Source: an uncultured Rhizobium sp.
GTDB lineage: Bacteria; Pseudomonadota; Alphaproteobacteria; Rickettsiales; UBA1997
DNA: 64,000 nucleotides
Direction of reading: 5' to 3'
Assembly (NCBI GenBank): GCA_964580715.1
Contig: CAZOKU010000002.1
Coordinates: 531-64,530, forward strand
Part shown: one piece after another, positions 4,538-62,182 of the stretch
Layout: every line of letters starts with the position of its first letter
Position numbering within the stretch: position 1 is the first letter of the stretch
The notes under the pieces: generated by a model
What the model saw: the letters and a program-made list of their open reading frames with translations, nothing else
The model's database searches: none
Told to the model about the DNA's origin: nothing
Program-made: the position numbers and the translations under genes

Positions 4538-4819
4538 ATGGAAACCACAAATCACACTTACACCAAAACCAGTCTTTATCTGAGAGACGACCTCAAAGAA
4601 AAGATCCACAAGCTTGCTCCTAAACAAAAACAAAGCGATTTTATTAATCAGACCTTAGAAAACACTTTAAAAAATCTTGAAAAAGAAATGATTAAACAAG
4701 AATTGTTGAAAGATTTAAAATCTATTAAAAAAATCAAAAGTAAAACTACAGCAAAACAAACTTTGGAAAAACTTAGAAAACAAAGAGAAAAAGTTTTGCT
4801 AGGCAGATTAAGCAAATAA
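4538..4819 (+). CDS. Putative ribbon-helix-helix antitoxin (VapB-like)
   Basis: 93 aa. The N-terminus KTSLYLRDDLKEKIHKLA..SDFINQTLENTL fits a strand-helix-helix (CopG/RHH) pattern, followed by a charged tail. It lies 22 nt upstream of a PIN-domain gene. Confidence 0.55.
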   Translation: METTNHTYTKTSLYLRDDLKEKIHKLAPKQKQSDFINQTLENTLKNLEKEMIKQELLKDLKSIKKIKSKTTAKQTLEKLRKQREKVLLGRLSK

Positions 4820-4841
4820 AATTAAACCAACATCACAAACC

Positions 4842-5279
4842 ATGACAAAAAAATTTGTAATCGACTCATGCGTCTTTATGAAGCTGTTTCTTGAAGAAGA
4901 TGATGATAAAATAGCAGAAAAACTATTAATAGAAGCTATCAAAAATTATAATCAAATTTACGTTCCAAGTATTTTTATTTACGAAATATCAAATATTGCA
5001 GCAAATAAAAACTTAGACTTAAAACATTTTTTTTCTATTTTAGAAAAATATGAAAAATCCGTTTTAAAAATAATCGAACCTTCTGCTGATTTACTTAAAA
5101 AATCAATTAAAATGGCTAAAAGTGGCAATACAAAATCTGACTATCCTTCTGTTTATGATTGCATTTATCATGTTTTGGCAATTGAAAAAAATTGTGTTTT
5201 TATTACTAGCGATCATAAACATTATGCCAAAGCAAAAAAATTTAGTTTTATTAAACTATTAAAAGACTATGGAAAATAA
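4842..5279 (+). CDS. vapC: PIN-domain ribonuclease toxin (VapC-like)
   Basis: 145 aa. N-terminal FVIDSCVF (acidic residue 1), LFLEEDD, and C-terminal FITSDHKHY (the TSD acidic residue) are typical of the PIN fold. Size and pairing with a small upstream gene fit a type II TA module. Confidence 0.65.
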   Translation: MTKKFVIDSCVFMKLFLEEDDDKIAEKLLIEAIKNYNQIYVPSIFIYEISNIAANKNLDLKHFFSILEKYEKSVLKIIEPSADLLKKSIKMAKSGNTKSDYPSVYDCIYHVLAIEKNCVFITSDHKHYAKAKKFSFIKLLKDYGK

Positions 5280-6486
5280 AAAAATTCTTCTAATCATCAC
5301 TGGCTCAATTGCCGCTTACAAATCAATGGATTTAATCCGTTTGCTTACGAAGAAAAATTATGACATCACCTGCATTTTAACCAAAGCAGCACAAGAATTT
5401 ATCACGCCCCTTCTTGCTTCAAGCCTTTCTGGCAACAAAACTTACACCGAGCTTTTTTCAGCTGATGAAGAACAAGAAATGGGGCATATCAACCTTTCGC
5501 GTCAAGCTGATTTAATTGTTGTTGCTCCAGCTTCTGCAGATTTTATCGCTAAAATGGCCAATGGTTATGCTGATGATCTGGCTTCTTCTGTAATTTTAGC
5601 CGCCAATAAAACAATATTTGTAGCCCCAGCAATGAATGAAAAAATGTGGGATAATAATAGCACTCAGCAACATCTAAAACAGCTCTTAGAAGCAGAAATA
5701 TCAATCATCCAGCCCGAAACCGACATTCTTGCTTGCGGCGAATTTGGCAAAGGAAAAATGTCTGCACCAGAAAAAATTTGCGAAGAAATTTGTAATTTTT
5801 TTGCGAATCAAAATTTGCTTGCTGGTAAAAAAATTCTTCTAACAGGTGGTGCAACCCTTGAGCCAATTGACCCTGTGCGTTTCATTGGCAATCACTCTTC
5901 TGGAAAACAAGCAATTGAAATTGCGAAAGCATTAAATGACATGGGCGCTGACGTAACTTTCATTGCTGGAAATATCAAAGAAGAAATTCCTTTAAAATCA
6001 GAAAAAATAATTCGCATCAAAACCGCTGAAGAAATGTTTTTAGCCGTTCAAAAAAATCTCGCAAATAACGATATATTCATTGCCTGCGCTGCAGTTGCTG
6101 ATTTCAAAGTTAAAAATTTTTCTGAAGATAAAATAAAAAAAACCACCAGCGACAGCATGACTTTAGATTTAGTAAAAAACCCTGATATTCTTGACTTTGT
6201 GGGGCACAATCAAAACCGCCCTGCCCTTGTCATCGGCTTTGCTGCAGAAGGAAAAGATTTAATTAAAAATGCTCAAGAAAAATTACAGAAAAAAAACTGC
6301 GATCTCATAGTTGCAAACGACATCAACGACGGAAAAATCTTCGGCGCAAACACAACTCGCGCTTATTTCGTTGAAAAAAACCAAATCAGCGATTGTCACG
6401 AAACTTCTAAAACAGAATTAGCCAAACTATTAGCCAAAAAAATTACCGAAAAGGTGTCAGACACTTTTACATCAAAAAGTGTCTGA
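5269..6486 (+). CDS. coaBC: Bifunctional phosphopantothenoylcysteine decarboxylase / phosphopantothenate-cysteine ligase CoaBC (Dfp)
   Basis: 405 aa. N-terminal flavoprotein motif ILLIITGSIAAYK, PAMNEKMW, and the C-terminal CoaB half GGATLEPIDPVRFIGNHSSGKQ and AAVADF. The last 11 aa (KVSDTFTSKSV) are encoded by the family-B palindrome. Confidence 0.9.
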   Translation: MENKKILLIITGSIAAYKSMDLIRLLTKKNYDITCILTKAAQEFITPLLASSLSGNKTYTELFSADEEQEMGHINLSRQADLIVVAPASADFIAKMANGYADDLASSVILAANKTIFVAPAMNEKMWDNNSTQQHLKQLLEAEISIIQPETDILACGEFGKGKMSAPEKICEEICNFFANQNLLAGKKILLTGGATLEPIDPVRFIGNHSSGKQAIEIAKALNDMGADVTFIAGNIKEEIPLKSEKIIRIKTAEEMFLAVQKNLANNDIFIACAAVADFKVKNFSEDKIKKTTSDSMTLDLVKNPDILDFVGHNQNRPALVIGFAAEGKDLIKNAQEKLQKKNCDLIVANDINDGKIFGANTTRAYFVEKNQISDCHETSKTELAKLLAKKITEKVSDTFTSKSV

Positions 6487-6494
6487 CACCTTTT
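6448..6494. terminator. Family-B palindrome (GAAAAGGTGTCAGACAC..GTGTCTGACACCTTTT) forming a bidirectional terminator-like hairpin between the convergent coaBC and pepP genes
   Basis: gaaaaggtgtcagacacttttacatcaaaaagtgtctgacacctttt: 17-18 bp arms, an A-run on one side and a T-run on the other. It overlaps the stop codons of both convergent genes. Confidence 0.75.
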
Positions 6495-8154
6495 AAAATT
6501 TACGCTGATATTCCGCCAACCATTTTTTTTCAGGATAAGTTAACATCGAAAAATCAATCAACCTTTCATCAAGCGGAACTAAAGTGAGGGTTTTGAAGCA
6601 CAAAAATTTCTCATTAAATTCTTCAACCAACATTAAATTTTCAATACGAATTCCATATTCCCCCTCTTTATAAAATCCCGGTTCGTTAGAAATTATCATT
6701 CCAGGTAAAAGCTCTTGATGCGCTCTGCGGCTTATTCCACATGGCCCTTCATGAACTGACAAAAAACTTCCAACGCCGTGCCCAGTTCCGTGATCATAAT
6801 CTTTTCCAACATTCCACAAATGAAAACGCGCTAAAGCGTCAAGCTGTCCGCCAGTTGTGCCTCGCGGAAATTTGGCGCGCGCCAAAGCGATGTGGCCCTT
6901 TAAAACTCGCGTAAAATTCTCCATCATTTCTTCAGTTGGATTTCCAACCGCAACAGTGCGCGTTACATCCGTAGTGCCAATAAAATCGCCACAATATTGC
7001 CCACCCGAATCAATCAAATAAAGCGAGTCTCCTTCAATTTTTTTATTAGTTTTTTTGCTAGCATGATAATGAATCACCGCACCATTATCCGCAAAGCTTG
7101 AGATTGTATTAAAACTTGGATATAAAAAATTTTTACTTTCTTTGCGAAATTCCAAAATTTTTTCTTCCGCCTTAATTTCATCAACTTCTTCACCATTTTT
7201 TAGCGCATTTTCAAGCCACAATAAAAACTTAGAAACCGCCGCGCCGTCTTCTTCATGTGCTTTGATCATACCAGAAACTTCTGTTTGATTTTTACACGCT
7301 TTTAACAAATTAATCGGATCAGTTTTAGCAATTATTTCAAAATTATTTTTTTCTAAAATCTCGTAAAGCCAATAGTTTGTTGATTCCAAATCAATCTGAA
7401 TTTTTTTTACTGATTTTTTTAAAACCGCAATTCTTAAATCAAAACAATCATTTTGCACAAAATTAACTTGCGGCAAATTTATTCCAGCAAATCTTTTTTC
7501 ATCAACAAATAATTCAACTTCACCATTTTTAAATAAAATTGCGTAAGCCAAAAGAAGCGGCGTAAATTCAATGTCAAAAGCCCTAATATTCAACAACCAA
7601 CATAAATTTTCTGGCTTAGTTATTATCATTGCATCAGCATCAAAATTTTTCAAAACTTGATTTCTTTTAAAAATCGAATCAGCACCTGTCAATTTTTCAT
7701 CTAAGGCAAAAACCTTAGATGCTGTAGCATTTGGCACGTCATGCCAGATCTCATCAACTAAATTTTTTTCACAAAAAACTTTTTCTGCAGCAATTTTTTT
7801 AACAAAATTCACATTCACCAATTTTGGATCAAGTGCAATTTTTTCATCTTTTTTTATATTATCCGAAATCCATGATAACACTGGCTTTTCAGCAATATTA
7901 AAAATTTCAAATTCTGCTAAATCAATTTCATTTTGCGCCTGTAAAATATATCTTCCATCAGTAAAAAAATATGATTTATTTTGGCCAAAAATCACATAAG
8001 CATTAGAGCCAGTAAATCCTGTGACATATTGAATTCTCTTTTTATTTTCTGGTAAATATTCCGAAAAAAATTCATCCGAATTAGGCAAAAAGAAATAATC
8101 AATTTTTTGCTCTTTTAACAGCTTTTTAAGCTCTTTTAATCTGAAATTTTTCAT
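6493..8154 (-). CDS. pepP: Xaa-Pro aminopeptidase (M24B, aminopeptidase P family)
   Basis: 553 aa. M24 metal-ligand motifs LIDSGGQY, DVTRT, HGTGHGVG, NEPGFY and GIRIEN. Confidence 0.85.
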   Translation of the reverse strand: MKNFRLKELKKLLKEQKIDYFFLPNSDEFFSEYLPENKKRIQYVTGFTGSNAYVIFGQNKSYFFTDGRYILQAQNEIDLAEFEIFNIAEKPVLSWISDNIKKDEKIALDPKLVNVNFVKKIAAEKVFCEKNLVDEIWHDVPNATASKVFALDEKLTGADSIFKRNQVLKNFDADAMIITKPENLCWLLNIRAFDIEFTPLLLAYAILFKNGEVELFVDEKRFAGINLPQVNFVQNDCFDLRIAVLKKSVKKIQIDLESTNYWLYEILEKNNFEIIAKTDPINLLKACKNQTEVSGMIKAHEEDGAAVSKFLLWLENALKNGEEVDEIKAEEKILEFRKESKNFLYPSFNTISSFADNGAVIHYHASKKTNKKIEGDSLYLIDSGGQYCGDFIGTTDVTRTVAVGNPTEEMMENFTRVLKGHIALARAKFPRGTTGGQLDALARFHLWNVGKDYDHGTGHGVGSFLSVHEGPCGISRRAHQELLPGMIISNEPGFYKEGEYGIRIENLMLVEEFNEKFLCFKTLTLVPLDERLIDFSMLTYPEKKWLAEYQRKF

Positions 8155-8203: not shown

Positions 8204-9676
8204 ATGACCAAAAAAAAATCAGCATATTCTTGTCAAACTTGTGGCGCCATACATTTTAAATGGTCGGGCAAATGCCCTGATTGTGGCGCTTGGAACAGCA
8301 TGATTGAAGAATTTGAAGAAGGCGGCCAATCACATTTTTCACGAATTTCTGAAGATAAAAAATCTGGAAAAGCAAATAGCAAAACCATTGAATTAGTTGG
8401 TCTAAACGGCGAAGCACAAGAGTTTCCGCGCGTCTACACCGGCATCAAAGAGCTAGATCGCGTGCTTGGCGGTGGCTTAGTTCAAGGCTCTGTAGTTTTA
8501 ATTGGCGGCGACCCTGGAATTGGCAAATCAACTTTATTGCTGCAAACCGCTGATGCTCTGGCTAAAAAGCACAATCAAGTGATTTACATTTCTGGTGAAG
8601 AATCCGTTGATCAAGTGCGCCTTCGTGCCAAAAGGCTTGGCACCACAGCAGATTCCATTCAACTTGGCGCAACCACCAACGTCGCCGAAATTATCAATTC
8701 AATTAAAACTGAAAAAACCAAACATCCTGAGCCAAAAACTAGTCATTCAGAACCGAAAACTAGTCATCCTGAGCCTGTCGAAGGGCCAACCATCGCCATC
8801 ATAGACTCTATCCAAACCATGTTTGTAGAAGATCTCTCTTCAGCACCAGGCACAGTGTCCCAAGTGCGCGCAGCTGCTGGTGAATTAACAATTTTTGCCA
8901 AAAAAAATAACATCACTTTATTAATTGTAAGCCACGTCACTAAAGACGGCCAAATCGCAGGGCCAAAGGTTTTAGAGCACATGGTTGATACGGTTTTATA
9001 TTTCGAAGGCGAAAAAGATTTACATTTTAGAATTTTGCGTGCAATCAAAAATCGCTTTGGTGCAGCCAATGAAATCGGCGTTTTTGAAATGAATGATGTC
9101 GGTCTTTCCGAAGTTTCAAACCCCAGCGAATTATTTTTAACTTCCTATGAACGCGAGACTTCTGGAACCGCAGTTTTTGCAGGAATCGAAGGCACTCGCC
9201 CAATTTTAGCGGAAGTGCAAGCTTTAGTTTCCCCATCTTTCATGCCCACACCAAGACGTGCTGTGGTTGGCTGGGACAGCAACCGCCTTGCCATGATTAT
9301 AGCAGTTTTAAACAATCGTTTTGGCTTAAATTTATTTGATAAAGAAGTTTATCTAAATGTGGTGGGAGGCCTTAAAATCGAAGAAACCGCCGCTGATTTA
9401 GCAGTTGCCTGTGCCTTAATTTCCGCCGCTCGCGACATTGCCCTTCCCTCTAACACCATTGCAATCGGCGAAATTGGCCTCAGCGGAGAAGTTCGCATGG
9501 TTGGCAATCTAGAGGGAAGATTAAAAGAAACCGCCAAGCTTGGATTCAAGAAATGCCTGATTCCCAAAGCCAACGAAAAAAATAAAAATTTCACCAATTT
9601 AAAAAAATCTTTACCTGAATTAGAACTTAATCTAATCTCTCACATCAGAGATTTAGCAAAATTTTTTAAGAAATAA
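8204..9676 (+). CDS. radA: DNA repair protein RadA/Sms, with an in-frame repeat insertion
   Basis: 490 aa. Zinc finger CQTCGAIHFKWSGKCPDCGAWNS, Walker A GGDPGIGKSTLLLQ, the RadA-specific KNRFG motif, and a Lon-like C-terminal domain. Confidence 0.95.
   Translation: MTKKKSAYSCQTCGAIHFKWSGKCPDCGAWNSMIEEFEEGGQSHFSRISEDKKSGKANSKTIELVGLNGEAQEFPRVYTGIKELDRVLGGGLVQGSVVLIGGDPGIGKSTLLLQTADALAKKHNQVIYISGEESVDQVRLRAKRLGTTADSIQLGATTNVAEIINSIKTEKTKHPEPKTSHSEPKTSHPEPVEGPTIAIIDSIQTMFVEDLSSAPGTVSQVRAAAGELTIFAKKNNITLLIVSHVTKDGQIAGPKVLEHMVDTVLYFEGEKDLHFRILRAIKNRFGAANEIGVFEMNDVGLSEVSNPSELFLTSYERETSGTAVFAGIEGTRPILAEVQALVSPSFMPTPRRAVVGWDSNRLAMIIAVLNNRFGLNLFDKEVYLNVVGGLKIEETAADLAVACALISAARDIALPSNTIAIGEIGLSGEVRMVGNLEGRLKETAKLGFKKCLIPKANEKNKNFTNLKKSLPELELNLISHIRDLAKFFKK
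8723..8785 (+). repeat. Three tandem 21-bp units inside radA (the third diverged)
   Basis: catcctgagccaaaaactagt / cattcagaaccgaaaactagt / catcctgagcctgtcgaaggg, encoding HPEPKTS HSEPKTS HPEPVEG just before the Walker B strand IAIIDSIQ. Confidence 0.9.
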
Positions 9677-10056: not shown

Positions 10057-10094
10057 TATAAAACCCCCAGCATCACTCTGGTTGCAGACATAGT

Positions 10095-10173: not shown

Positions 10174-11439
10174 CTAAACCCCCAGCATCACCAACTGATC
10201 AATCCTTACCACAACTCTCCTCGCAATATTTTCAGAACTTTCAATCACCTCAAAAGCACGCCCCGACATAGATTTTACCATATCAGTATCTTCAAAAAAC
10301 TTCTTAACCACCACAGCAATTTCTGCGCCAGAATCAAGCATCACACAAGCATTTTGCCGCTCTAACTTTTCATAAATTTCTTTAAAATTAAAAACTCCAC
10401 GACCAGAAATAACCGCACATCCAAGCTTAATTGGCTCGAATGGATTATGCCCACCAATTTCAAAAAGCGAACCTCCAATAAAAGAAAAATTACAAAGCGA
10501 ATAAAAAATTCCCATTTCGCCTAAAGTGTCAACCAAGTAAATTTCTGTAGAATCTTCAATCTTTCCTGCAACACTTCTTTGCGCAATTTTGAAATTTCTC
10601 AACAAAGCCTTAACTTCCTCTGCGCGATTTGGATGACGCAAAACTAAAATTGTTAATAAATCTGGAAATTCACTTTTTAACTTCTTATGCGCCGCAATCA
10701 CATATTCCTCTTCACCCTTGTGAGTGCTTGCTGCAAGCCACATTTTTCTTCCGCCAATTTGTGTTTTTATTTTTTCTAACTCATCAAAATTAACCGATAA
10801 ATTTCTTGCTTGCGACTTCAAATTTCCATAAAATAAAACTTCCTGCTTGGTCAATTTTGCAAATCGCTCTTTACTTTCAACCATCTGCACAAAAATCGCT
10901 GCAAAATAATCAAAAATATTAAAATTAATTTTCTTAGCAAAATGCCATTTTTTAAAAGATTTTTCTGACATTCTAGCATTCACTAAAAAACTTAAAATTC
11001 CACGATTGCGCGCTTCAAAAACAAGGTTTGGCCAAATTTCTGATTCAACAAAAATTGCCACTCTTGGCTTCCAAAAATCAAAAAAACTTTTAACGCAAAA
11101 ATATGAATCAATCGGCAAAAATTGATGCAAAACTCTGCCTTTAAATTCTGGCAATTTTTTATCTAAAATCGCTGCAGAAGTGAGAGTTGTAGTGGTAAAT
11201 AAAATCGTAATTTTTGGCGAAAAATTTAATAATTCTTCAATCAAAACCATCGCTGAATTTGCCTCACCAACACTCACGGCATGAAGCCAAACAATGTGAC
11301 CTTCTGGCCTCTTCACCGAAGACTTCCCCAGTCTTTCAAGAAAACGTTTTTTATCTTCTTTTTTATTAAGCAACCGCCAAAACAAATAAACCAACAAAAG
11401 CGGGTAAATAACAATCGAAATAATACGGTAAAAAATCAT
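10174..11439 (-). CDS. waaA: 3-deoxy-D-manno-octulosonic acid (Kdo) transferase WaaA/KdtA
   Basis: 421 aa. N-terminal membrane anchor, VWLHAVSVGE motif, and a glycosyltransferase N/C layout (GGSL...GGHNPFEP). Confidence 0.85.
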   Translation of the reverse strand: MIFYRIISIVIYPLLLVYLFWRLLNKKEDKKRFLERLGKSSVKRPEGHIVWLHAVSVGEANSAMVLIEELLNFSPKITILFTTTTLTSAAILDKKLPEFKGRVLHQFLPIDSYFCVKSFFDFWKPRVAIFVESEIWPNLVFEARNRGILSFLVNARMSEKSFKKWHFAKKINFNIFDYFAAIFVQMVESKERFAKLTKQEVLFYGNLKSQARNLSVNFDELEKIKTQIGGRKMWLAASTHKGEEEYVIAAHKKLKSEFPDLLTILVLRHPNRAEEVKALLRNFKIAQRSVAGKIEDSTEIYLVDTLGEMGIFYSLCNFSFIGGSLFEIGGHNPFEPIKLGCAVISGRGVFNFKEIYEKLERQNACVMLDSGAEIAVVVKKFFEDTDMVKSMSGRAFEVIESSENIARRVVVRIDQLVMLGV

Positions 11440-11448
11440 GATATAAAT

Positions 11449-12870
11449 TTAAAAACCTCCAGCAGATTTAATAAAAAATCGCTTCAAAGGCCCGATTTTG
11501 TTCACCAAACCAAGCCCAACATCACGCATGGTTTTAAGAGAAAAACTCTTGGTTTCAAAAATAGAATTCAAAACATCAGTTGCAATCAGCATTTTTCTTG
11601 CCCCAATTTTTGCTTTTTTATTGTAAGAATCAATTACACTTTGCGCCGAAATATCAAATCCACAAAATAAATTTTCTCTAATTAATTCTTGCAAAATTTT
11701 AATTCCTGAAATTGCTAAATTAAAACCTTGCCCCGCAATTGGGTGCACACCACAAGCGGCGTCTCCAATCAAAAGCATTTTTTTGTAATAAAAATCTTTC
11801 GCCTCAATTGCAATCAATGGATAGGAAAATTTTTCAGAAATAATTTTTATTTCTCCTAAAACATTTTCCATTTTTTTGCTTAACTGATGCGTGAAATTTT
11901 CTTCATCCAGCTTCAAAATTGCTTTCGCCTCCTCACTAGGAAAAATCCACACAATCGATGATTGATTATGATCTTTAAAAGGCAAAATCGCAAGTGGCCC
12001 ACCTGGCAAAAACTTTTCATGCGCAATATTTTGATGTGATTTTTCGTGAGAAATATTAAACACAATTGCAGTTTGATGATAGTTTTTTACAGTTGTTGGA
12101 ATTTGATATGTCTCGCGAAGCTTAGAAAACCTGCCATCACAAGCTAGGATTAGTTTTGATGATAAGGTTGTTTTGTTATCAAGTTTTATTTGGCATGAAC
12201 CTCCAGGCGGGATTGCAAATCCCGCCTGAGCAAGGATTCTTCCATCATCAAGTTTGATTTGGCGTGAACGTGAGGACTGGGTCAGAGACCCATTCCTGCT
12301 CAAGGTCTCACATTCAGGATCCTGTTGCACAACAGGATCTCTGACGGTGTCCTCACGTTCATTTTCCATCCGTTGCTGGACGGGGTTTGCAACCCCGTCC
12401 TCACGTTCATGCCTCTGCTGCAGGACTGGTTCTGTGACGGCGTCATCACGTTCATGCAAAAATTTAATCTCCTCATAAAAATTCGGACAAAAAACCGTAA
12501 CATTTTTCCGCTTCAAAACCTCATCCCGCAAAGCATTATGAATATGATAATTCTCAATAATCATCCCAAAATCCCCTTCCACTTCAGACCCAATAAAATC
12601 AAGGATAAACGGCGATTTTTGATCAGTAATTTTTATATCAGAAATCTTCCCCGCCTCTTTTTCAAGCCGCTCAAAAATTCCAATCTCTTCAAACAATTTC
12701 AAAGAAGCCGAAGATATCGCATAAGCCCTTCCATCGCGCTTGCGATCATGATTCAAAATATCTTGCCTTTCCACTATCGCAATTTTCAAATCATCAGAAA
12801 CCACAGCTAAAGCAAGAGCTGACGTCATCCCCGCAAATGATCCACCAATTATTATTATGTCAAAATTCAT
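11449..12870 (-). CDS. FAD-dependent ubiquinone-biosynthesis hydroxylase (UbiH/UbiF/COQ6 family) carrying an approximately 90-aa repeat-derived insertion
   Basis: 473 aa. FDIIIIGGSFAGMTSA dinucleotide-binding motif, ACDGRFSKLR, and GDAACGVHPIAGQGFNLA, the family signature. The internal stretch ERDDAVTEPVLQQRHEREDGVANPVQQRMENEREDTVRDPVVQQ...AQAGFAIPPGGSCQ is encoded by family-A elements. Confidence 0.85.
   Translation of the reverse strand: MNFDIIIIGGSFAGMTSALALAVVSDDLKIAIVERQDILNHDRKRDGRAYAISSASLKLFEEIGIFERLEKEAGKISDIKITDQKSPFILDFIGSEVEGDFGMIIENYHIHNALRDEVLKRKNVTVFCPNFYEEIKFLHERDDAVTEPVLQQRHEREDGVANPVQQRMENEREDTVRDPVVQQDPECETLSRNGSLTQSSRSRQIKLDDGRILAQAGFAIPPGGSCQIKLDNKTTLSSKLILACDGRFSKLRETYQIPTTVKNYHQTAIVFNISHEKSHQNIAHEKFLPGGPLAILPFKDHNQSSIVWIFPSEEAKAILKLDEENFTHQLSKKMENVLGEIKIISEKFSYPLIAIEAKDFYYKKMLLIGDAACGVHPIAGQGFNLAISGIKILQELIRENLFCGFDISAQSVIDSYNKKAKIGARKMLIATDVLNSIFETKSFSLKTMRDVGLGLVNKIGPLKRFFIKSAGGF
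12178..12458. repeat. Cluster of five family-A palindromic elements in mixed orientation, all in frame within the UbiH-family gene
   Basis: Copies at about 12194-12235 (catgaacctccaggcgggattgcaaatcccgcctgagcaagg), 12262-12305, 12306-12362, 12368-12412 (ccgttgctggacggggtttgcaaccccgtcctcacgttcatgcc) and 12413-12456. Flanking direct repeat atcaagttt(t/g)atttggc(a/g)tgaac at 12178-12200 and 12247-12269. Confidence 0.9.
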
Positions 12871-12895: not shown

Positions 12896-13267
12896 TCAAA
12901 AAATTATTTTAATTGGCTCAGCTTTCTTCGATGGAATTGATTGAATAAGACGAAAAATTGTTTCCAAATCACCAACATCCGTCAGCCTCAATTTACCATC
13001 TTCAGCAATCATTTTCAACTGGTGACAATTTGTCACCAGTTCACTTCCTTCCAGTTCTAGTCTTTCTTTAAGCTTATTCCAATATTTCCGCGCCTTCTGA
13101 AATTCATACTGCTCCGTCAAAGCAGCCACAACATCAACAATCGAAAAAAACCATTTCTGACTTTTTTCATCAAAATGACGACGAATTTTAAATTTTTCAA
13201 AAATAGCTGGAAGGCTAGTTTTGCTGGTGTTTTTCATATTAAATTTATTGTTATTATTAATCTTCAC
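12896..13267 (-). pseudogene. Truncated Bro-N-domain paralog (N-terminal domain only)
   Basis: 123 aa. FKIRRHFDEKSQKWFFSIVDVVAALT...LIQSIPSKKAEP parallels residues about 15-105 of the adjacent 286-aa protein (IRRTWYNEEWWFSVVDIVAALT...IIQSIPSSKAEP), then stops where the longer paralog continues with FKKWLAQVGYERI. Confidence 0.5.
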
Positions 13268-13275
13268 TAAATAAG

Positions 13276-14136
13276 TTAATTAATTTTCAATTTTTCCTTT
13301 TTATCAAAGGCAATATCCAAATAATTCTCCTTACTAATCACACTTCTTTTTAATTCCTTTTCAGTTGATTTTCGCGCACTGCCCGCAACCGCTCCGCCAC
13401 GCTTTGCAACTTTTTTACTTTTATTAAAATTATCTGGCTTTTCTTGTTTTGAAATTTCAGTGGTCACTTTCTCACCAAGCATCGTAAATATTAGCTCCAA
13501 GTCAGTCATGTTATCACGCAAATTGGCATTTGATTTGCTCGGAATATTTTTAAATTTTTTATATTCATTTGGCGTCATGCCAAATGTCGCTTTGGAAATT
13601 TCAGCAGTCAAAATTGCATAATCTTTTTCCGCCAAAATTCCTCTTTCTTTCCATTCATCAGTTAAATTTTGTCTTATCGCAATACCGCGCAATCTTTTAT
13701 CAATCCAATCTTTAGGATAACCTTTTTGCTCATAAAGCATTTTCATGCGCTGCTGTGCTAGCTCAGGATCTTCAATTTCCTTAATGCGCTCATAACCAAC
13801 TTGTGCAAGCCATTTTTTAAAGGGTTCTGCTTTTGATGATGGAATTGATTGAATAATACGAAAAGCACCTTCAACATTGGTGCAATTAATATTTTGAACT
13901 CCACCAATAGTTTGTATTGGAAGGGGGGTGGCAATTTGCCCCCACCCTTTTGATAATTCTTCATCCCTTCGACGCATATCTTTGATATATCCAGCAGGAT
14001 CAATAGAGTCTGTTAAAGCAGCAACAATATCAACCACACTAAACCACCATTCTTCATTATACCAAGTACGACGAATTTGTTTTTCTTTAAAAATTACTAA
14101 AGATTTTTCGTGGTTTAAGTTTTTTTTATTTTTCAT
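13276..14136 (-). CDS. Bro-N domain-containing protein (DinD / antirepressor-like family)
   Basis: 286 aa. Bro-N-like N-terminus (WWFSVVDIVAALT, IQSIPSSKAEPFKKWLAQVGYERIKEIEDPE) plus the conserved C-terminal part (LTDEWKERG..DYAILT.EI...GMTPNEYKKFK, LRDNMTDLEL). I recognise this widespread family from memory; it was not searched. Confidence 0.6.
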   Translation of the reverse strand: MKNKKNLNHEKSLVIFKEKQIRRTWYNEEWWFSVVDIVAALTDSIDPAGYIKDMRRRDEELSKGWGQIATPLPIQTIGGVQNINCTNVEGAFRIIQSIPSSKAEPFKKWLAQVGYERIKEIEDPELAQQRMKMLYEQKGYPKDWIDKRLRGIAIRQNLTDEWKERGILAEKDYAILTAEISKATFGMTPNEYKKFKNIPSKSNANLRDNMTDLELIFTMLGEKVTTEISKQEKPDNFNKSKKVAKRGGAVAGSARKSTEKELKRSVISKENYLDIAFDKKEKLKIN

Positions 14137-20561: not shown

Positions 20562-20580
20562 TTCTGTACAAACTAAACAT

Positions 20581-20620
20581 CTGCTGGGCGGGATTTGCAA
20601 TCCCTCCCAAGTGTTCATGC
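20581..20620. repeat. Family-A palindromic element
   Basis: ctgctgggcgggatttgcaatccctcccaagtgttcatgc, immediately downstream of pal. Confidence 0.85.
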
Positions 20621-20652
20621 AATTATAGTTAAATAACTTACCTATTTTTTAC

Positions 20653-20696
20653 CCGTTGCAGGACGGGGTCTCTGACCCCGTCCTCACGTTCATATC
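20653..20696. repeat. Family-A palindromic element (GGGGTCTCTGACCCC core variant)
   Basis: ccgttgcaggacggggtctctgaccccgtcctcacgttcatatc. Confidence 0.85.
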
Positions 20697-20760
20697 AAAC
20701 TATTAAAGAACATAAACATTTTGTCATAGTCAAAAAACCCACCCTCAACTTCATGTTCTA

Positions 20761-23700
20761 TCAGGCATTTTTCACCACCTTTTCCAACAAAGAATTCTGC
20801 TGACATCTAGCATGTAAATGCTCAAAACTAAACTTATCCATATTTTGATCTTGTTCCATGCAAGCATAAAAATATTCCACCTCACCATTTTCATCAAACC
20901 TTTTTTGCAGACACTGCGAACAAACTGCCTTCATCATACATTGCATTGGCGCGTTTAAACTGGTAATTGCAATTGGCGCCTCCACAATTTCTGGCACAAT
21001 TTTTTCATAACGCAACTTCGCAATTTCATGCATCATTTCATCATTACCAATAGTAAAAATACGATCAATTTTATTGCTGATACCGATGCTGGGCTTAGTG
21101 CTGGAAAGGGTTACGATGCTGTGTTTGCTCCCAATGCTGGACTGGACAGAGCTGCTGGGCGGGGTTTGTAACCCCGCCCACATGTTCATGCCAAAATATT
21201 CTTTTACCGCATCAATCACCGTTCCTTTAATCCCTAAGCTTTCCACCTTGTGCAATTCCAACTTAGAATCATTTTCAATCGCAAAAATCATCTGGTCACA
21301 AGAATTTTCCATACGTTCTTGCCTAACCACAAAAGAAGCATCACGATATCCCGCAACAAAAATAACTTTACAACCATTTTGTTTAAAAACTTCCGCTAAT
21401 GCTGTAAGTGGCTGATTACCACGGCCTCCACCAATCAGTAAAACAGTCTCATTTTTCGGAATTTCCGTCGGCTTGCCACCAGGGCCCATGAAAACACAAG
21501 GCTCTCCTTCTTTAAAATTTTTAATCAAAGAAGTTGAACCACCAGTTTCTACAACAATTCCACTAATAATTCCATTAACTTCATCAACGCTTAAAGCTGT
21601 AACAGCAACACCTTCCATCGCTAAAGTTTTATCCTCAACTTTTTTTGCTAAAGCGTGATAATTTTGCAATCTAAAAATATGCCCAACTTTCGTTTTCCTT
21701 GCAAGCAGCGGCGCTTTAATAAAAATTTCAACGACGTGTTCTGACAAACGGTCAACTCTTTCAACTCTAGTTAAAAAATCATAATTAATTTTTTCTAAAA
21801 AATTCAAATCATACCTATCGCTGGACTGGGTTTCTAACCCTGTCCACATGTTCATATCTAATTTCTCAATAATCTGCTTATATCCCAATTTTGCACTGGC
21901 CATCGCCTTCACCACATTGCCCTCAAACTTTTCACTAGCATCACCAAAAAAACTAATTTTATCCGAATTAATATCCATTTGATCTTCATAAAACGGTGAT
22001 AGATTCGGATGAGTTCCAGCCGCAACCAGCAATGATCCACAAGGATATTCCCCTTCATTACATTTTAATGATTTTATATGAGAAAATTCATCAAGCTCAG
22101 CTTTTACAGGAACAACATTTTCAATAAATTCGACACCTTCTTCCAAAGCTTTATTTAACTCTTGATGATTGTGTTTGTAGGCTGGAGATTCCTGAATTTT
22201 TTTACGATATAAAATTTTTACACCACCAAGTTTTTTTAAAAATTCATGGCTCGAAGCAGATTTTAAAAGCTGCTCGTGATGAGACAAAAATTCTTCAGCA
22301 ATTATTTTTTCCTCTTCATTTAATTGTTTAAATAATTTTTCTTTACCAATTTTTGCAACATTTTCAGCAAATTTTTTAATCTGCTCAACATAATAAGCAC
22401 CAGCTTCACAAGCAACGTCAATCGCCGTCAACCCTCCTCCAACCACCAAAATTGGCATTCTAAGTTGTAAATTAGTTTGCAAATCTTTACGAAATGCCCC
22501 ACCTAAGTGCAACGCCATTAAGAAATCAGAAGCTTGGCGAATCCCTTTAGCAAAATTATTTTCTAAATTGATGATATTTGGTTTTCCCGCACCAATGCAA
22601 AGCGCCACATGATCAAAGCCATATTCTTTAACTGCATCTTCAATTGTAATTGATGAACCAAAACGAAGTCCGCCAAACATTCTAAAATTTTCTCTGCGCT
22701 CTAAAAGCAAACGAATAATTTTTAAAAAATTTTTATCCCATCTTGCCGTAATTCCATATTCCGAAACCCCGCCAAAACCATGTATCAAACGAGTTGAAAG
22801 CGGTTCATAAATTTCTTCAATAAATTTGATTGGCCTAAATTTTCTTCTATTACCAAATTCATCAATCCCTGATATTTCTGGATCTAAAGGCTCAATTTTC
22901 AAACCATCAATTGCAACAACGCTAAATCCTTCATTTAATAAATAGTGCGACAAAGTATAACCAGCAGGCCCTAAACCACATACTAAAATTTTTTTATTAT
23001 TCTCACTTTTAACAATTGGCGAATCAATATTTAACGGATTCCAACGCGTTAATAATGAATAAATTTCAAATCCATAAGGCAGTTTTAAAACATCCTTCAA
23101 CACTCGCGTTTCAATTTGCGGAATATCCACCGGATCTTGTTTTTGATAAATGCAAGCCTTCATACAATCATTGCAAATGCGGTGTCCAGTGCCTGCCACC
23201 ATCGGATTGTCAATAATTGTAAAAGCTAGTGATGCCAAAGAAAAACTTTCAGCCTTTAACAAATTCATCTCTGAAATTTTTTGATCTAAAGGACAACCTC
23301 CCAGCTGCTGGACGGGGTCAGACACATTTTTTTTCTCATATCCCTTACGACAAGAATCCTTATCCTGCCTATGACAAAAAATACAATAGTGCGCCTCCGC
23401 CAAAACCCGATTAAGCGCAAACCCTTGATCAGTAAGATCAAAACCATCACGATTACGTAAAAAGGTGTCAGACACCTTTTGATCAAAAGGTGTCTGACAC
23501 CTTTCAATTTTTTGCGGCAAAATAAATAAAGAACCATTTTTGTGGAAAGCTTTTCCTTCGCCGCTGTAAAGGGCCCAAGTTGCATAAGCTATAAAATCAG
23601 ATAACTCATCTTCAGCATTATTTTCAAGCAAAGAAAAAATTTTATCCGCTAACTTTTTTTCTAAATCATCAATATTTCCATGATAATCAAGACCAAGTGC

Positions 23701-36760: not shown

Positions 36761-38440
36761 ATGCCAGCAGAAATAATAAAACTAGACAATATTCCACCAA
36801 CTAGCGGTGTTTATCAATTTTTTGATGCAAAAGACCGCGTTTTATATGTTGGAAAAGCCAAAAATCTTTACAAAAGAGTTGCCAGTTACACCAAAACTGA
36901 CAAGCTTTCACAGAGAATTTCTCACATGGTTTTTTTGGCACAAAAGCTGGAAATTATTCAAACTGAAAATGAAGTTGAAGCGCTGCTTCTGGAGCACAAT
37001 TTAATCAAAAAGCTTGAGCCCCGTTATAACATCTTGCTGCGCGATGATAAAACTTTTCCTTACATTCACATTACTAAGCATAATTTTCCACAAATCACCA
37101 AATATCGCGGGCCAAAAAAAGATGACGGGTTTTATTTCGGACCATTCGCCTCAGCCCATGATGTTAATCACACCATCGATGTTTTGCGCAAAAGTTTTTT
37201 GCTTAGAAATTGCTCTGATGCTGAATTTAAATCGCGCAAAAAACCTTGTCTTGAATATCAAATTAAAAAATGCTTCGCGCCTTGTGTGAATCTGGTTTTG
37301 CAGAATGATTATGAAACTGCTGTAAAAAACGCAGTTGAATTTTTAAACGGCAAATCTGCTGAAGTGCAAAAAAATTTGCTCGCTAAAATGCAAAAATTAA
37401 GCGCAGAAGAAGAGTTTGAAAAAGCCGCAATAATTCGCGATCAAATTAAATCTTTAAACAGCATTCAAACCAAGCAAAACATTAACTTACAAGACATTAA
37501 AAATGTTGATATTATCACGCTAAAACAGCTAAACAACATGACTTGCGTTTATATTTCTTTTTATCGCAACGGGCAAAATTATGGCGCAAAACCTTATTTC
37601 TATGAAATTGATAGCACTGAAAAACAAGAAGAATTTTTATCTGATTTTTTAGGACAATTTTATTTAAACCAAATTCCTGCAAGTGAAATTTTTCTAAATC
37701 TTGAAATAGCCGAGCAATCCTTAATGGAAGAGTTTTTAAGCAAGCTGGCGGGTTGTAAAGTTATCATAAAAATTCCTAAAATTGGCAGTAAATTGGCTTT
37801 AATCAAAGATCAGGAAAAAATCGCACTGCAAAATATTGAGCAAAAAATATTACAAAATTTAAATAATCGCGAATTGCTTTTAGAGATAAAAAAAGCTTTT
37901 GATTTACCAAAAATGCCACAAAAAATTGAAGTTTATGACAACAGCCACACCAGCGGAAGTAATGCTGTAGGGGTTTTAATCACCGCCGACATCAATGGCT
38001 TTGTTAAAAGCGGCTATCGCAAATTTAACATAAAATCAGCAACACCAAATTCAGAAACCAACATTCTTTACGGCAAAGACGACACTGCCATGATGCGCGA
38101 AGTTTTATTTCGCAGATTCTCAAAATTAGACAAATCTGAATATCCTGATTTAATCATTCTTGATGGTGGAAAACCACAACTATCAGCGGCTCAAGCAATT
38201 TTTGATGAATTAAAAATCAAAATTCCTTTTATTTGCATGGCCAAAGGCGAAAACCGCAACGCTGGTGAAGAAAAATTTCATCAAACCAACAAAGAAATTG
38301 TAACTTTTCCCAAAAATCACCCCGCCCTACATTATCTGCAAAGATTACGCGACGAAGCCCACCGCTTTGCGATTATGACTCATCGCAAAAAACGTAGCAA
38401 AGAAACTTTTTTATGGGCCACTAATTCTCACGCCTCCTGA
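36761..38440 (+). CDS. uvrC: Excinuclease ABC subunit C (UvrC), apparently lacking the C-terminal (HhH)2 domain
   Basis: 559 aa. GIY-YIG (GVYQFFDAKDRVLYVGKAKNLYKRV), UVR domain (EEEFEKAAIIRDQIKSL) and the endonuclease V-like domain (IEVYDNSHTSG...RDEAHRFAI). The ORF ends about 20 aa after the EAHRF motif, inside the converging 994-aa gene. Confidence 0.85.
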   Translation: MPAEIIKLDNIPPTSGVYQFFDAKDRVLYVGKAKNLYKRVASYTKTDKLSQRISHMVFLAQKLEIIQTENEVEALLLEHNLIKKLEPRYNILLRDDKTFPYIHITKHNFPQITKYRGPKKDDGFYFGPFASAHDVNHTIDVLRKSFLLRNCSDAEFKSRKKPCLEYQIKKCFAPCVNLVLQNDYETAVKNAVEFLNGKSAEVQKNLLAKMQKLSAEEEFEKAAIIRDQIKSLNSIQTKQNINLQDIKNVDIITLKQLNNMTCVYISFYRNGQNYGAKPYFYEIDSTEKQEEFLSDFLGQFYLNQIPASEIFLNLEIAEQSLMEEFLSKLAGCKVIIKIPKIGSKLALIKDQEKIALQNIEQKILQNLNNRELLLEIKKAFDLPKMPQKIEVYDNSHTSGSNAVGVLITADINGFVKSGYRKFNIKSATPNSETNILYGKDDTAMMREVLFRRFSKLDKSEYPDLIILDGGKPQLSAAQAIFDELKIKIPFICMAKGENRNAGEEKFHQTNKEIVTFPKNHPALHYLQRLRDEAHRFAIMTHRKKRSKETFLWATNSHAS

Positions 38441-42017: not shown

Positions 42018-42043
42018 ATTTAAAAATTCTTATAATAACCTTT

Positions 42044-42084
42044 GGTGCTAGTCGGGGTCTCCTGACCCCGACTGACTGTTCATT
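42044..42084. repeat. Family-A-like palindromic element between hisG and the OMP gene
   Basis: ggtgctagtcggggtctcctgaccccgactgactgttcatt, with core GTCGGGGTC-TCC-TGACCCCGAC. Confidence 0.8.
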
Positions 42085-42178
42085 TTCCTATCAAAAATTG
42101 GCATTTATAATAACTTAAAATAAACCTAATAACCTAGAAAAAAAGCCGCTACCGCAAAAAAAATAATTTTTTCCATGT

Positions 42179-47774: not shown

Positions 47775-47790
47775 TTCCTGATAAAAACTA

Positions 47791-47831
47791 TTTGCTGGGC
47801 GGAATTTGCAATTCCGCCCTTCTATTCATGC
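47791..47831. repeat. Family-A palindromic element downstream of ilvC
   Basis: tttgctgggcggaatttgcaattccgcccttctattcatgc. Confidence 0.85.
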
Positions 47832-48000
47832 AATACCCAATTACACCAAATTGCATTTTATATCACAATCGGCGGTTATCCCTTCATAAACAACTCGGTG
47901 TAATGGGATATTTCCCTAACAATCCCAAAAAAAACATCTTTAAAAAAAACATCTCTTATCTAAGATAAAATAATCAAATTATTTTAATCATTATTTTATC

Positions 48001-59870: not shown

Positions 59871-59922
59871 ACTGTCGCAAATCAAAATTTTCTAAGAAAT
59901 TTTTGATTTGCGACAGTGCCAT
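59871..59922 (+). promoter_or_regulatory. 17-bp-stem hairpin plus GATTTGCGACAGTGCC motif, 22 nt upstream of the first pilin-like gene (copy 2 of 2)
   Basis: actgtcgcaaatcaaaa-ttttctaagaaat-ttttgatttgcgacagt gcc. It shares AAATCAAAA..TTTGATTTGCRACAGTGCC with 44384-44425. Confidence 0.45.
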
Positions 59923-59944
59923 AAAAAATCTTTACTGTTTTTTA

Positions 59945-61045
59945 ATGCAAAAAAAGCCTAAGGCATTCAGCCTAATTGAGCTATCCATCGTTATTACAAT
60001 TATCGCAATCCTCGTTGTTGGCGCTGTTTCTGTGTCAATTTTTAATGACACTAAAGAAAAAATTAAACTCACTCAAGAGCGCATGAATGAAATTTATAAA
60101 GCACTTGGAATTTACGCCGCAAAAAATGGAAAATTGCCCTGCCCCGCCTCTATGAAAGTTGAATCAAGCGATGCATCTTATGGTTTTGCAGCAGATTGCT
60201 CATACACTTGCACTTCCACCAGCTTCCCATCTTCAAGCCTAGGAATCTGGTGTTCCTCAGCTGCAACAAACATTTGGTATGGCATGATTCCAGTTTCAAC
60301 TCTGGATCTACCGATTAGTTATGCCACCGACGCCTTTGGCACTAGATTTAGCTATTTTGTTTTACGCGGCTACACCAACACCACTGATTTTGCAAGCGAG
60401 AACACTTCAACTTTCATTAATGGCAGCGCAAATTATAGTTACGACTCAGGAGACAGCGAAGGAGTTGGAGCCGCCCGCATCAGAGTCTATGAAAATTTAA
60501 ATGGAATTAACCGAAGAATCACCGACAATGCAGCATTTGTTATCGTAAGCCACGGGCCTAATAAATTTGGCGGATGGAATGACACAGCAACAACACAAAA
60601 TGCTGAATCATCCGTTTCAAATTTTGAAAGAGCAAATTATATAACCCCCTCAACAACAGACGCCACAAACATCGGCATGGCCACTTTTTATTCCTCTTAC
60701 ATCACCGCAAAGCATGACACTTCAAAAGTTTTTGATGATATTGTTTTGTATAAAACCATCGATCAACTTGTACTCGATTTCAACATACTCTATTTAGTGC
60801 CTTGTGACAAGCCTGATGGCAGCGGCAACAGTTTATATCCACTAAATAAACTAAACATCTATGACCAATATGGCAGTTCTACTTCTTCTTGGCCATCTGG
60901 AAACACGGCGCCAAAATATGGCGCAATATATAACAGCACCTCAACTTGCAGTTCACCTTATAACAAATGGGTAACTTATCCAAATCGCCGATGTGGTGCA
61001 TTCGGAATTTGGGAAACCACTACCACTGAAAATTGTTTTAATTAA
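59945..61045 (+). CDS. Large prepilin-type N-terminal methylation-domain protein, paralog 1
   Basis: The ATG at 59945 gives MQKKPKA|FSLIELSIVITIIAILVVGA (class III signal, Glu at +5). The track ORF begins upstream at a TTG (59903). It shares the blocks listed in the findings with the three downstream genes. Confidence 0.8.
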   Translation: MQKKPKAFSLIELSIVITIIAILVVGAVSVSIFNDTKEKIKLTQERMNEIYKALGIYAAKNGKLPCPASMKVESSDASYGFAADCSYTCTSTSFPSSSLGIWCSSAATNIWYGMIPVSTLDLPISYATDAFGTRFSYFVLRGYTNTTDFASENTSTFINGSANYSYDSGDSEGVGAARIRVYENLNGINRRITDNAAFVIVSHGPNKFGGWNDTATTQNAESSVSNFERANYITPSTTDATNIGMATFYSSYITAKHDTSKVFDDIVLYKTIDQLVLDFNILYLVPCDKPDGSGNSLYPLNKLNIYDQYGSSTSSWPSGNTAPKYGAIYNSTSTCSSPYNKWVTYPNRRCGAFGIWETTTTENCFN

Positions 61046-61051
61046 AAAATT

Positions 61052-62182
61052 ATGTCACTATTGCAAAAAAAACCTTCGGCATTCAGCCTAATCGAGCTTT
61101 CGATCGTGCTTGCAATCATCTCAATTTTAGTTACAGGCGCTTTATCGCTTTCAACAAACAACGCCAACAAAGAAAAAATCCGCATCACCAACGAAAGAAT
61201 CAACGAAGTTTATAAAGCGATGGGAATTTATCTCGCTAAAAACGGCAAACTTCCTTGCCCAGCTTCAGTTAAAATTGACAAAACCAACCAATCTTATGGA
61301 AGTGCTGCCGATTGTTCTTACGACTGCAGCAGCAGCTTTCCTTCTTCAAGCCTTGGCATTTGGTGTGCCAAAAACAACACCAATGTTTGGTATGGCATGA
61401 TTCCCACTAAAACTCTAAAACTTTCCTCTGATTATGCCGAAGATGCATTTGGCAATCGTTTCAGCTATTTCGTTTTGCGCGGCTATACCAACACCAGCAC
61501 ATTTGGCACTGAAAATGACGCAACTTTCGTTGGCAACGGCGCTCCAAATAATTACACCGCTACGGTAGATAATTTAAGCATAGGAACCAACCGCATCCGC
61601 GTTCATGAAACATTAAACTTTGGAAACCCAAAGCCAATCACTTATAACGCAATTTTTGTTATTGTAAGCCACGGACCAAACGGCTATGGCGCTTGGAACT
61701 CTTATTCAACCACTCAAAACAGTCTTTCCACCAGCACTTCCGAAAGTGGAAATTACATTTCTGGAACAGTCGATTCACCTTCCACAGGAAAAGCCACCTT
61801 CTACAATTATCCATCTGATTATCTCACCGCATATAATGATGCTGATGGAATTTTTGATGATATTGTTTTTTTTAAAACCGTCGACCAGATAGTTTCAGAT
61901 TTTAACATCATGCATTTAATTCATTGCGATAAACCATTTGGCACCAACACCTATCCCGCAAATAATTCCGCACGAATCACCGATTCCAAAAGCGACACCG
62001 GATACTTCGAATGGACCAACAGCACTGATTCGAATCGCCCGATTAAATATGGACAAATAGTTGAAGCCAACTCTTCTGGATCATGTGCTTCACCTTACAC
62101 CAAAGTTCTTGCCAAAGCAACCCGCCGCTGTGGTGCCTTTGGAATCTGGGATCCAGGACTAACATATAATTGCTTAAGATGA
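61052..62182 (+). CDS. Large prepilin-type N-terminal methylation-domain protein, paralog 2
   Basis: 376 aa. MSLLQKKPSA|FSLIELSIVLAIISILV. Conserved blocks NERINEVYKAMGIYLAKNGKLPCPAS, WYGMIPTKTL, FGNRFSYFVLRGYTN, FVIVSHGPNGYGAWN, FDDIVFFKT and RRCGAFGIW. Confidence 0.8.
   Translation: MSLLQKKPSAFSLIELSIVLAIISILVTGALSLSTNNANKEKIRITNERINEVYKAMGIYLAKNGKLPCPASVKIDKTNQSYGSAADCSYDCSSSFPSSSLGIWCAKNNTNVWYGMIPTKTLKLSSDYAEDAFGNRFSYFVLRGYTNTSTFGTENDATFVGNGAPNNYTATVDNLSIGTNRIRVHETLNFGNPKPITYNAIFVIVSHGPNGYGAWNSYSTTQNSLSTSTSESGNYISGTVDSPSTGKATFYNYPSDYLTAYNDADGIFDDIVFFKTVDQIVSDFNIMHLIHCDKPFGTNTYPANNSARITDSKSDTGYFEWTNSTDSNRPIKYGQIVEANSSGSCASPYTKVLAKATRRCGAFGIWDPGLTYNCLR

Follow-up and report, generated by a model that had tools for sequence, protein, structure and literature searches.

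We find that a UbiH-family hydroxylase gene in a contig classified in Rickettsiales (UBA1997) carries, in frame, a nest of small palindromic repeats. The gene lies in a stretch of 64,000 nt from contig CAZOKU010000002.1 (hereafter the window; GenBank assembly GCA_964580715.1, labeled as an uncultured Rhizobium sp.), and the repeats belong to a hairpin family that we call family A. The insert holds five full copies of about 45 nt and one tail fragment, with three copies in one orientation and two in the other. It is likely, in our assessment, that these are small non-autonomous elements resembling repetitive extragenic palindromic sequences (REPs), nested within a working gene in the manner of Rickettsia palindromic elements (RPEs). 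An RPE-like interpretation had been proposed by an earlier, sequence-only reading of the window, and it is supported by the occurrence of the family both between genes, at unlinked positions, and in frame within further genes.

Layout of the insert in ubiH

The five in-frame elements described by the sequence-only reading, in both orientations, were confirmed with nhmmer and span 12190-12459. We built the profile from ten copies and ran it over the 64-kb window (Table 1). The 90-residue peptide quoted in that reading is exact. Since the segment stands in place of a 5-residue turn, the net gain is 85 amino acids; of the 90, nine residues (IKLDDGRIL) derive from the host gene by duplication rather than from an element. 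In the sense of the gene, the layout is EEIKF / L-HERDDAVTEPVLQQR / HEREDGVANPVQQR-ME / NEREDTVRDPVVQQ / DPECET / LSRNGSLTQSSRSRQ / IKLDDGRIL / AQAGFAIPPGGSCQ / IKLDNKTTL..., where IKLDDGRIL is a second copy of the beta strand that comes after the insert.

The insert stands out from its surroundings in composition and folding. Its GC content across 12200-12450 is 51-57%, compared with about 33-35% on either side, and its folding energy is -73.2 kcal/mol (z = -9.1 relative to shuffles). Direct repeat D2 relates 12307-12362 to 12400-12455 at 77% identity. The tail motif CTCACGTTCATGC (two or fewer mismatches) occurs six times in the window against 0.65 expected, a count reached by none of 100 shuffles.

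A search of the insert peptide against 1.84 billion representatives returned 24 matches, and no inspected match carries the element. Most of those inspected are Kelch-type repeats (DPxTGTFSxTGSM...LLxDGRVL), which by chance resemble the junction where the duplicated host strand meets copy E4, and two more are tandem-repeat proteins of an unrelated kind.

Family A as a dispersed hairpin repeat

Aligned copies show family A to be a dispersed hairpin repeat under structural constraint. Its consensus, GCWGGACGGGGTTTGTAACCCCGTCCWCAYGTTCAT, is about 45 nt long: a GC-rich stem of 11 bp closes a 3-nt loop, and a conserved, asymmetric tail, CAYGTTCAT, follows on the 3' side. We aligned 51 copies: 13 from the window, 5 from the locus of a related metagenome-assembled genome (MAG), L010, and 33 from 15 metagenome contigs. 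Pairing is retained in 95.7% of stem cells, and compensatory (two-sided) changes are found in nine of the 11 stem pairs. The outermost pair is AU in 23 copies and UA in 21, and the second is G-C in 41 of 51. The stem covariation score is 0.403 versus 0.163 for shuffles (0 of 500 reach it), and slid partner columns score 0.11 at most.

Copies of family A are scattered through the window, with six in intergenic regions and seven within genes. The profile recovered every one of the six intergenic copies listed by the sequence-only reading, three of them weakly (E = 1.4e-3, 2.6e-4, and 0.01); that list had missed the two in-frame copies in the RP005-like gene. All six intergenic copies lie just 3' of a gene, the one at 10095 following the cupredoxin gene and the one at 42041 being downstream of the gene before hisG. 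Eleven of the 13 copies are on the plus strand, which is C-rich throughout, with a uniformly negative GC skew in the window.

The element leaves most reading frames open. Its consensus can be read through in four of six frames (+0, CWTGFVTPS; +2, LDGVCNPV; -1, HEREDGVTNPV; -2, MNVRTGLQTPS), and all intragenic family-A copies seen use one of these four. A weak match at 23302-23319 (E = 1.6), read as DPVQQLGG, was rejected as native conserved protein sequence rather than an element remnant.

Beyond the window, we found five copies in L010 and 38 in 15 independent metagenome contigs. The usual unit in the related contigs is a tail-to-tail inverted dimer of about 90-105 nt with an AT-rich spacer, whereas the copies in the window are singles or part of the mixed nest. 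Nine related loci (L001-L009, from species-representative genomes, about 130 kb) have no family-A copy at E<=0.01. Thus, family A is patchy among relatives. The family-A pattern had no match in viral contigs or in plasmids, and no Rfam family reached its gathering threshold anywhere in the window.

Table 1. Coordinates of the host gene, the parts of its insert, and the other family-A copies in the window
Feature	Position	Strand	Evidence or remark
UbiH/UbiF/VisC-family FAD-dependent hydroxylase, 473 aa	11449..12870	-	uninterrupted open reading frame
Whole inserted segment, codons 138-227, 90 aa	12190..12459	-	replaces 5-6-aa beta turn of most orthologs
Copy E1, gene reads HERDDAVTEPVLQQR, stem partly decayed	12414..12459	+	nhmmer E=2.2e-10
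Copy E2, gene reads HEREDGVANPVQQR, perfect 10-bp stem GGACGGGGTT/AACCCCGTCC	12369..12414	+	nhmmer E=1.6e-12; inverted repeat I8
Copy E3, gene reads NEREDTVRDPVVQQ, stem decayed	12321..12366	+	nhmmer E=2e-8
Tail-only fragment CTCACATTCAGGATC of a further copy, ~15 nt	12307..12321	+	direct repeat D2
Copy E4, opposite orientation, LSRNGSLTQSSRSRQ	12260..12305	-	nhmmer E=1.5e-9
Duplicated host segment, IKLDDGRIL	12232..12258	-	codon layout; 23-nt direct repeat
Copy E5, opposite orientation, AQAGFAIPPGGSCQ, perfect 11-bp stem	12191..12236	-	nhmmer E=3.6e-8; inverted repeat I6
RP005-like oxidoreductase, 1105 aa	20761..24078	-	
Intragenic copy, in frame in RP005-like gene, read as GMNMWAGLQTPPSS	21148..21193	+	nhmmer E=2.7e-12
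Intragenic copy, in frame in RP005-like gene, read as MNMWTGLETQSS	21814..21859	+	nhmmer E=2.3e-10
Intergenic copy between convergent OmpA-family and RP005-like genes	20577..20622	+	nhmmer E=2.6e-10
Second intergenic copy between the same convergent genes	20652..20697	+	nhmmer E=8.1e-12
Intergenic copy 16 nt 3' of ilvC (Pfam KARI)	47788..47833	+	nhmmer E=4.7e-9
Diverged intergenic copy between cupredoxin gene and waaA	10095..10139	+	nhmmer E=2.6e-4 (weak)
Diverged intergenic copy directly 3' of radA stop codon	9678..9723	+	nhmmer E=1.4e-3 (weak)
Diverged intergenic copy upstream of hisG, 11-bp stem in GC island	42041..42087	+	nhmmer E=0.01 (weak)

Comparison with orthologs shows that family A inserts in genes, the surviving copies being found in permissive loops and open frames. 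Both copies in the RP005-like gene fall in alignment columns that are empty in its closest orthologs, P0122 and P0123 (70% identity). Across 120 RP005-like orthologs (P0121-P0240), lengths range from 955 to 1253 amino acids, with about 30 variable insertion sites. Two of these sites, after query residues 253 and 743, are hot spots: 8-21 orthologs have inserts there, with peptides of several palindrome families. The site of the 21814 copy is itself a hot spot. A CobT gene and a class-I/II (BioF-like) aminotransferase gene, both from independent metagenome contigs, likewise contain in-frame family-A dimers.

The palindromes that invade genes here belong to at least three or four different families. 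RadA (radA, 8204..9676, plus strand) has a 22-residue insert, KHPEPKTSHSEPKTSHPEPVEG, at 8720-8800 that is lacking in the 82%-identical RadA of L010. This insert is encoded by another GC-rich palindrome family, GTCATCCTGAGCCTGTCGAAGG, of the HPELVEG type, which is likewise found in UbiH and RP005-like orthologs. A third family, AAAGGTGTCAGACACCTTTTGATCAAAAGGTGTCTGACACCTTT, has two copies in the window. One (6449-6501) overlaps the 3' end of coaBC; the other (23460-23512) is in frame in the RP005-like gene, where it is read as ERCQTPFDQKVSDTF and where orthologs have a shorter, different segment. An inverted pair of GC-rich segments in the intergenic region beside lipB (1912-1979 and 2039-2100; CCCCTCACCCTAACCCTCTCCCCGC... 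/ ...GCGGGGAGAGGGTTAGGGTGAGGGG) is yet another palindromic repeat type.

Growth and tolerance of the nest

The nest copies are often most similar to copies elsewhere in the window. The nearest relative of E2 is the copy at 21148 (86% identity, versus 76% to E1 and 65% to E3); that of E4 is the copy at 20652 (86%), and that of E5 is the copy at 20577 (73%, versus 46% between E5 and E4). The five copies are mutually 43-78% identical and represent three stem and loop subfamilies. With unlinked copies closest to E2, E4, and E5, the comparison favors a nest that grew mainly as new elements inserted repeatedly beside earlier ones, rather than by simple tandem amplification.

Host sequence was also duplicated locally, at least once, as the nest grew, judging from a 23-nt direct repeat (12178-12200 and 12247-12269, 69 nt apart, 91% identical). 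This repeat comprises an element tail and the host codons for QIKLD; therefore, the host strand IKLD... is present twice, once on either side of E5. Together with the three head-to-tail copies, with periods of 45 and 48 nt, this duplication of host sequence and element tail is what might be expected had one ancestral insertion been amplified locally to five copies, by replication slippage or unequal crossing-over between hairpins. The nest would then be silent on repeated targeting. We judge such an origin quite unlikely, however, given the unlinked relatives of E2, E4, and E5, the three loop and stem subfamilies, and the presence of unrelated element families at the same site in orthologs.

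Direct repeats flank family-A elements at two further loci. An exact 16-nt repeat, AAACCCCCAGCATCAC (10061-10076 and 10176-10191), brackets a stretch of about 100 nt in which the family-A copy at 10096 lies, and the second unit of the repeat forms the 3' end of waaA. At locus L021, a 38-nt direct repeat (at 3257 and 3428) surrounds a family-A dimer. These three loci excepted, we detected no consistent target-site duplication in most loci, where the longest word shared by the flanks is 6-11 nt, no more than in random controls.

The turn of UbiH is, on the evidence of its orthologs, a permissive insertion hot spot, and the inserted segment is no ancestral domain. For a census of inserts, we used the 120 closest homologs (identity up to 78%), relatives that carry labels of uncultured Alphaproteobacteria, Rickettsiales, or Pelagibacterales bacterium MAGs. 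The sequence-only reading had noted that a shared segment of approximately 90 residues in orthologs would mean an ancestral domain. We find instead that 84 of the 120 have a turn of 5-6 residues, while the other 36 have varied inserts of 7-90 residues, among which that of the window is the longest; hence the site is read as a hot spot.

The inserts of orthologs at this site come from several palindrome families. Some are family A, such as P0024 (...LDGVTNPVQQR). Other peptides found there (CHPERSEGS, HPELVEG, FDGLRMT, LSLSKHD, AQDDK, and PRHEDGVT...VTPHSLRGP) are those that other GC-rich palindromes typically encode. In L010, the same turn of UbiH is occupied by two family-A copies in mutually opposite orientation, and three more copies are intergenic. 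The closest ortholog with little or no insert, that of L011, has nine residues here and retains a tail remnant alone (GATTCATGCCAA/ATAAAACT).

The location of the insert in a loop between two beta strands, raised earlier as a question, is borne out by structural comparison. The hidden Markov model alignment to 4n9x covers query residues 2-136 and 228-472 and breaks exactly at the insert, with query residues 137-227 matching chain residues 139-147. In an AlphaFold (AF2) model with a predicted template modeling score of 0.74, strands at 132-137 and 226-230 flank the insert, which has no secondary structure and a predicted local distance difference test score of 26-45. The insert is thus a predicted disordered surface loop of about 85 residues that emerges from a beta-hairpin turn. 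The insertion point lies just upstream of the conserved ACDGxxS motif (ACDGRFS).

It is very unlikely that this loop is an adaptive addition, with a regulatory or interaction role under positive selection, rather than merely tolerated. The frame is open over 90 codons and 30% of close homologs have some insert at the site, as might be expected of a useful loop. Nevertheless, length (7-90 residues), sequence, and element family vary among close relatives, with no conserved peptide, and the insert is predicted to be disordered. Furthermore, the same DNA element is read in four frames across genes and is also intergenic.

The ubiH gene is intact by the measures available from its sequence. Its product matches Pfam FAD_binding_3 (PF01494; E = 1.1e-19) and has 4n9x (E = 2e-44), 7mwa, and 4k22 as relatives in the PDB. 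It has the characters of the UbiH/UbiF/UbiI (VisC)/COQ6 class A flavoprotein hydroxylases, namely the fold of FAD_binding_3 (FAD, flavin adenine dinucleotide) with the N-terminal dinucleotide-binding, DG, and GD motifs. The invariant residues G9, G10, D245, G246, G369, and D370 are all present, and every column invariant among 28 aligned orthologs is retained. Orthologs are about 393 residues long versus 473 for the protein of the window. Relative to L011, the closest insert-poor ortholog, the nonsynonymous divergence (dN) is 0.158 and the synonymous divergence (dS) 2.1, which is saturated, giving a dN/dS of about 0.07. The reading frame of 473 codons is open, as the sequence-only reading had stated, and across the insert the frame of the gene alone is free of stop codons, the other five containing 2, 11, 3, 3, and 1.

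The same observations bear on whether ubiH could be a recently inactivated pseudogene in which elements pile up without selection, a condition that the sequence-only reading had itself named as fatal to its proposal. Two of the five hairpins are decaying, as would be expected from such a history. This explanation is nonetheless highly improbable: no stop or frameshift interrupts the 473 codons even though stops occur in the other frames of the insert, invariant residues and a low dN/dS are maintained, and many orthologs, like radA, cobT, the bioF-like gene, and the RP005-like gene, have comparable inserts in frame. Least likely of all is an assembly artefact, mis-joined at short repeats. The source is a MAG contig, with a single record of the exact protein; but copies that share only 43-78% identity and are shorter than a sequencing read cannot mislead an assembler, the reading frame is preserved, and independent assemblies have the family in frame at the same site (L010) and in other genes.

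Between fumC and ubiH, a piece of about 1.3 kb (12896-14136) contains two open reading frames (ORFs), one with a Bro-N domain (286 residues) and one of 123 residues. The two share a C-terminal segment, seen as a 50-nt repeat with 82% identity between 12907 and 13815. Since fumC directly adjoins ubiH in a syntenic relative, this piece looks like a separate insertion. FumC (516 residues) and TIM (282 residues) also seemed over-long, but have the same lengths in the syntenic relative and were set aside as features of the lineage, not fresh insertions.

Relation to known repeats and possible mobilization

Family A shares its main characters with RPEs. It is in RPEs that palindromes lying in frame within genes were classically described (Ogata et al. 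2000, 2002, summarized in PMC10969869 and PMC3733652), RPE-1 being about 150 bp long. As with RPEs, we find a dispersed, multi-copy palindromic family (13 copies in 64 kb, with compensatory stem changes) in an AT-rich alphaproteobacterial genome, located both between genes and in frame in housekeeping genes. The genes invaded are open (UbiH, RP005-like, CobT, and BioF-like), and for UbiH and RP005-like there are orthologs without the insert. The elements are also compatible with the protein fold and cluster within one gene. Family A differs from RPE-1 in size, at about 45 nt or about 95 nt as a dimer, a comparison made by description, and its host is an uncultured freshwater lineage rather than the genus Rickettsia.

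Intragenic clusters of REPs have been described before. Single, dimeric, and clustered REPs are known within genes, with clusters that encode 43-82 residues in Thauera and Rickettsia conorii, and different REPs can share one site of orthologous genes, as in recB of Xanthomonas (PMC3733652). The earlier statement that five copies in a single gene is extreme was thus overstated, since the 85 residues gained here lie slightly above the published range. What is new is the repeat family and its host lineage; the phenomenon itself is already known. Published clusters are slightly smaller than this nest, and the orthologs clearly mark the turn as a hot spot for several families.

Family A works like CGTC and GTAG REPs but belongs to neither superfamily. 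These are the two superfamilies into which REPs have been divided (Di Nocera et al. 2013; PMC3733652). CGTC REPs, among them RPE-4, RPE-6, and dRS3 of Neisseria, are the prevalent kind in Alphaproteobacteria and have no dedicated transposase; their mobilizer was left open (PMC3733652). They are defined by an unpaired terminal CGTC (or TGTC/CCTC) tag, a stem of 8-9 bp that starts with two A-T pairs, a loop of 4-5 nt, and a short CCA tail (PMC3733652). Family A resembles them in being short stem-loops, mostly 3' of genes, without an associated transposase in the window and with intragenic clusters. Membership was rejected, as its CGTC (alignment columns 29-32) is inside the stem, paired with GACG (columns 11-14), the stem is 11 bp with only the outermost pair A-T/T-A, and the loop is 3 nt. 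The tail, too, differs from CCA, being a conserved 9-12 nt, CAYGTTCAT(GC). Membership among GTAG REPs was rejected because the consensus, nCnnnnGCTGGACGGGG..., has no GTAG.

In several respects, family A also resembles the systems in which REPs, or the inverted REP doublets called REPINs, are mobilized by REP-associated tyrosine transposases (RAYTs). The shared characters are a compensatory hairpin, inverted dimers (for family A, in the related contigs), the lack of terminal inverted repeats and target duplications, and a position 3' of genes. By analogy, a RAYT-type system would be the most plausible model for the movement of family A. Unlike these systems, family A has no GTAG tag, and the 64-kb window encodes no RAYT. 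Seven of the 13 copies here are intragenic, in contrast to REPs, the overwhelming majority of which lie outside genes. We rejected an assignment to miniature inverted-repeat transposable elements, as the palindrome is a central hairpin without terminal inverted repeats of 15-30 bp and there is no fixed target-site duplication.

A parallel exists in yeast mitochondria. Their GC clusters (e.g., GC42) are GC-rich hairpins of 42-48 nt in an AT-rich genome that merge into nests, and a 48-nt cluster lies inside the coding sequence of var1/rps3 (PMC4478555). Both systems have stems under constraint, merger into nests, and locations inside coding sequence. Unlike family A, those of yeast have short AG or ACT direct repeats at their flanks and lie mostly between genes, and the two have unrelated sequences and different genetic systems.

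We propose that family-A repeats landed repeatedly in one permissive spot, the 5-residue beta-hairpin turn of UbiH. Their persistence has three causes. The insertion site tolerates variation in length; the element seldom spells TAA, TAG, or TGA because it is GC-rich in a genome of 35% GC; and selection would presumably keep only events with a net length that is a multiple of three in tolerant loops, while removing insertions that shift the frame or contain stops. The elements may move as single-stranded hairpins, without fixed target duplication.

Mobilization in trans is a tentative extension of this proposal. Single-stranded DNA moved by an HUH/Y1 enzyme, similar to RAYT or the TnpA of IS200/IS605 and encoded elsewhere in the genome, would fit several features of the family: its conserved hairpin carries an asymmetric tail, it has neither terminal inverted repeats nor consistent target duplications, it forms inverted dimers in related contigs, and its copies show a strand bias. 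We regard this as possible, at somewhat less than even chances.

Several observations weigh against the interpretation of the nest as RPE-like insertions of mobile REP-like hairpins. None of the 49 ORFs in the window matches a transposase or RAYT in Pfam, and the strand bias of family-A copies rests on about 10 independent events. The long flanking direct repeats at three loci (16, 23, and 38 nt) are not predicted by simple cut-and-paste or peel-and-paste movement. The source is a single metagenome-assembled contig; the ends of the element are approximate; and no polymorphism between filled and empty sites was seen within one population.

A bolder reading is that, in this freshwater alphaproteobacterial lineage, the same small set of protein loops is the target of active and recurrent insertion by several unrelated GC-rich hairpin families. 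Insertion would be directed by hairpins beside existing copies, without a dedicated flanking transposase. This is improbable, but if true, the lineage would have an ongoing generator of disordered protein loops, and gene invasion of the RPE type would be general in AT-rich bacteria similar to Rickettsiales, not peculiar to Rickettsia, with an echo in the mitochondrial GC clusters. The flanking duplications, long and of variable length (16-38 nt), would then have been left by a replicative mode of insertion that has yet to be described.

The likelier reading, a nest of REP-like hairpins in a working gene, makes the UbiH turn a natural experiment, in which one position has inserts of 7-90 residues from different families in 30% of close homologs. 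Thousands of metagenomic orthologs exist for this abundant, uncultured freshwater lineage. They could be used to measure which protein positions tolerate insertion and to watch the birth of disordered loops and, with whole genomes, to find the mobilizer of REP-like elements that have no associated transposase. The value thus lies in a comparative data set and in the question of the mobilizer, not in a new principle. In practice, such inserts make annotated MAG proteins longer and give rise to spurious low-complexity peptides.

The window includes other features that are separate from the repeats. A 994-residue ORF with a TrbL/VirB6 domain (38411-41395) encodes a large VirB6-like protein of the kind seen in Rickettsiales; this ORF and the RP005_N-type oxidoreductase hint at the affinity of the source organism. 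Four tandem paralogous genes occupy 59903-64000 with a period of about 1.1 kb (repeat families D1 and D3). As one of them has a prepilin-type N-terminal methylation motif, the region is read from its sequence as a pilin-like gene array. Between ruvB and coaBC (4538-5279), a small ORF is followed by a PIN-domain ORF, probably a toxin-antitoxin pair.

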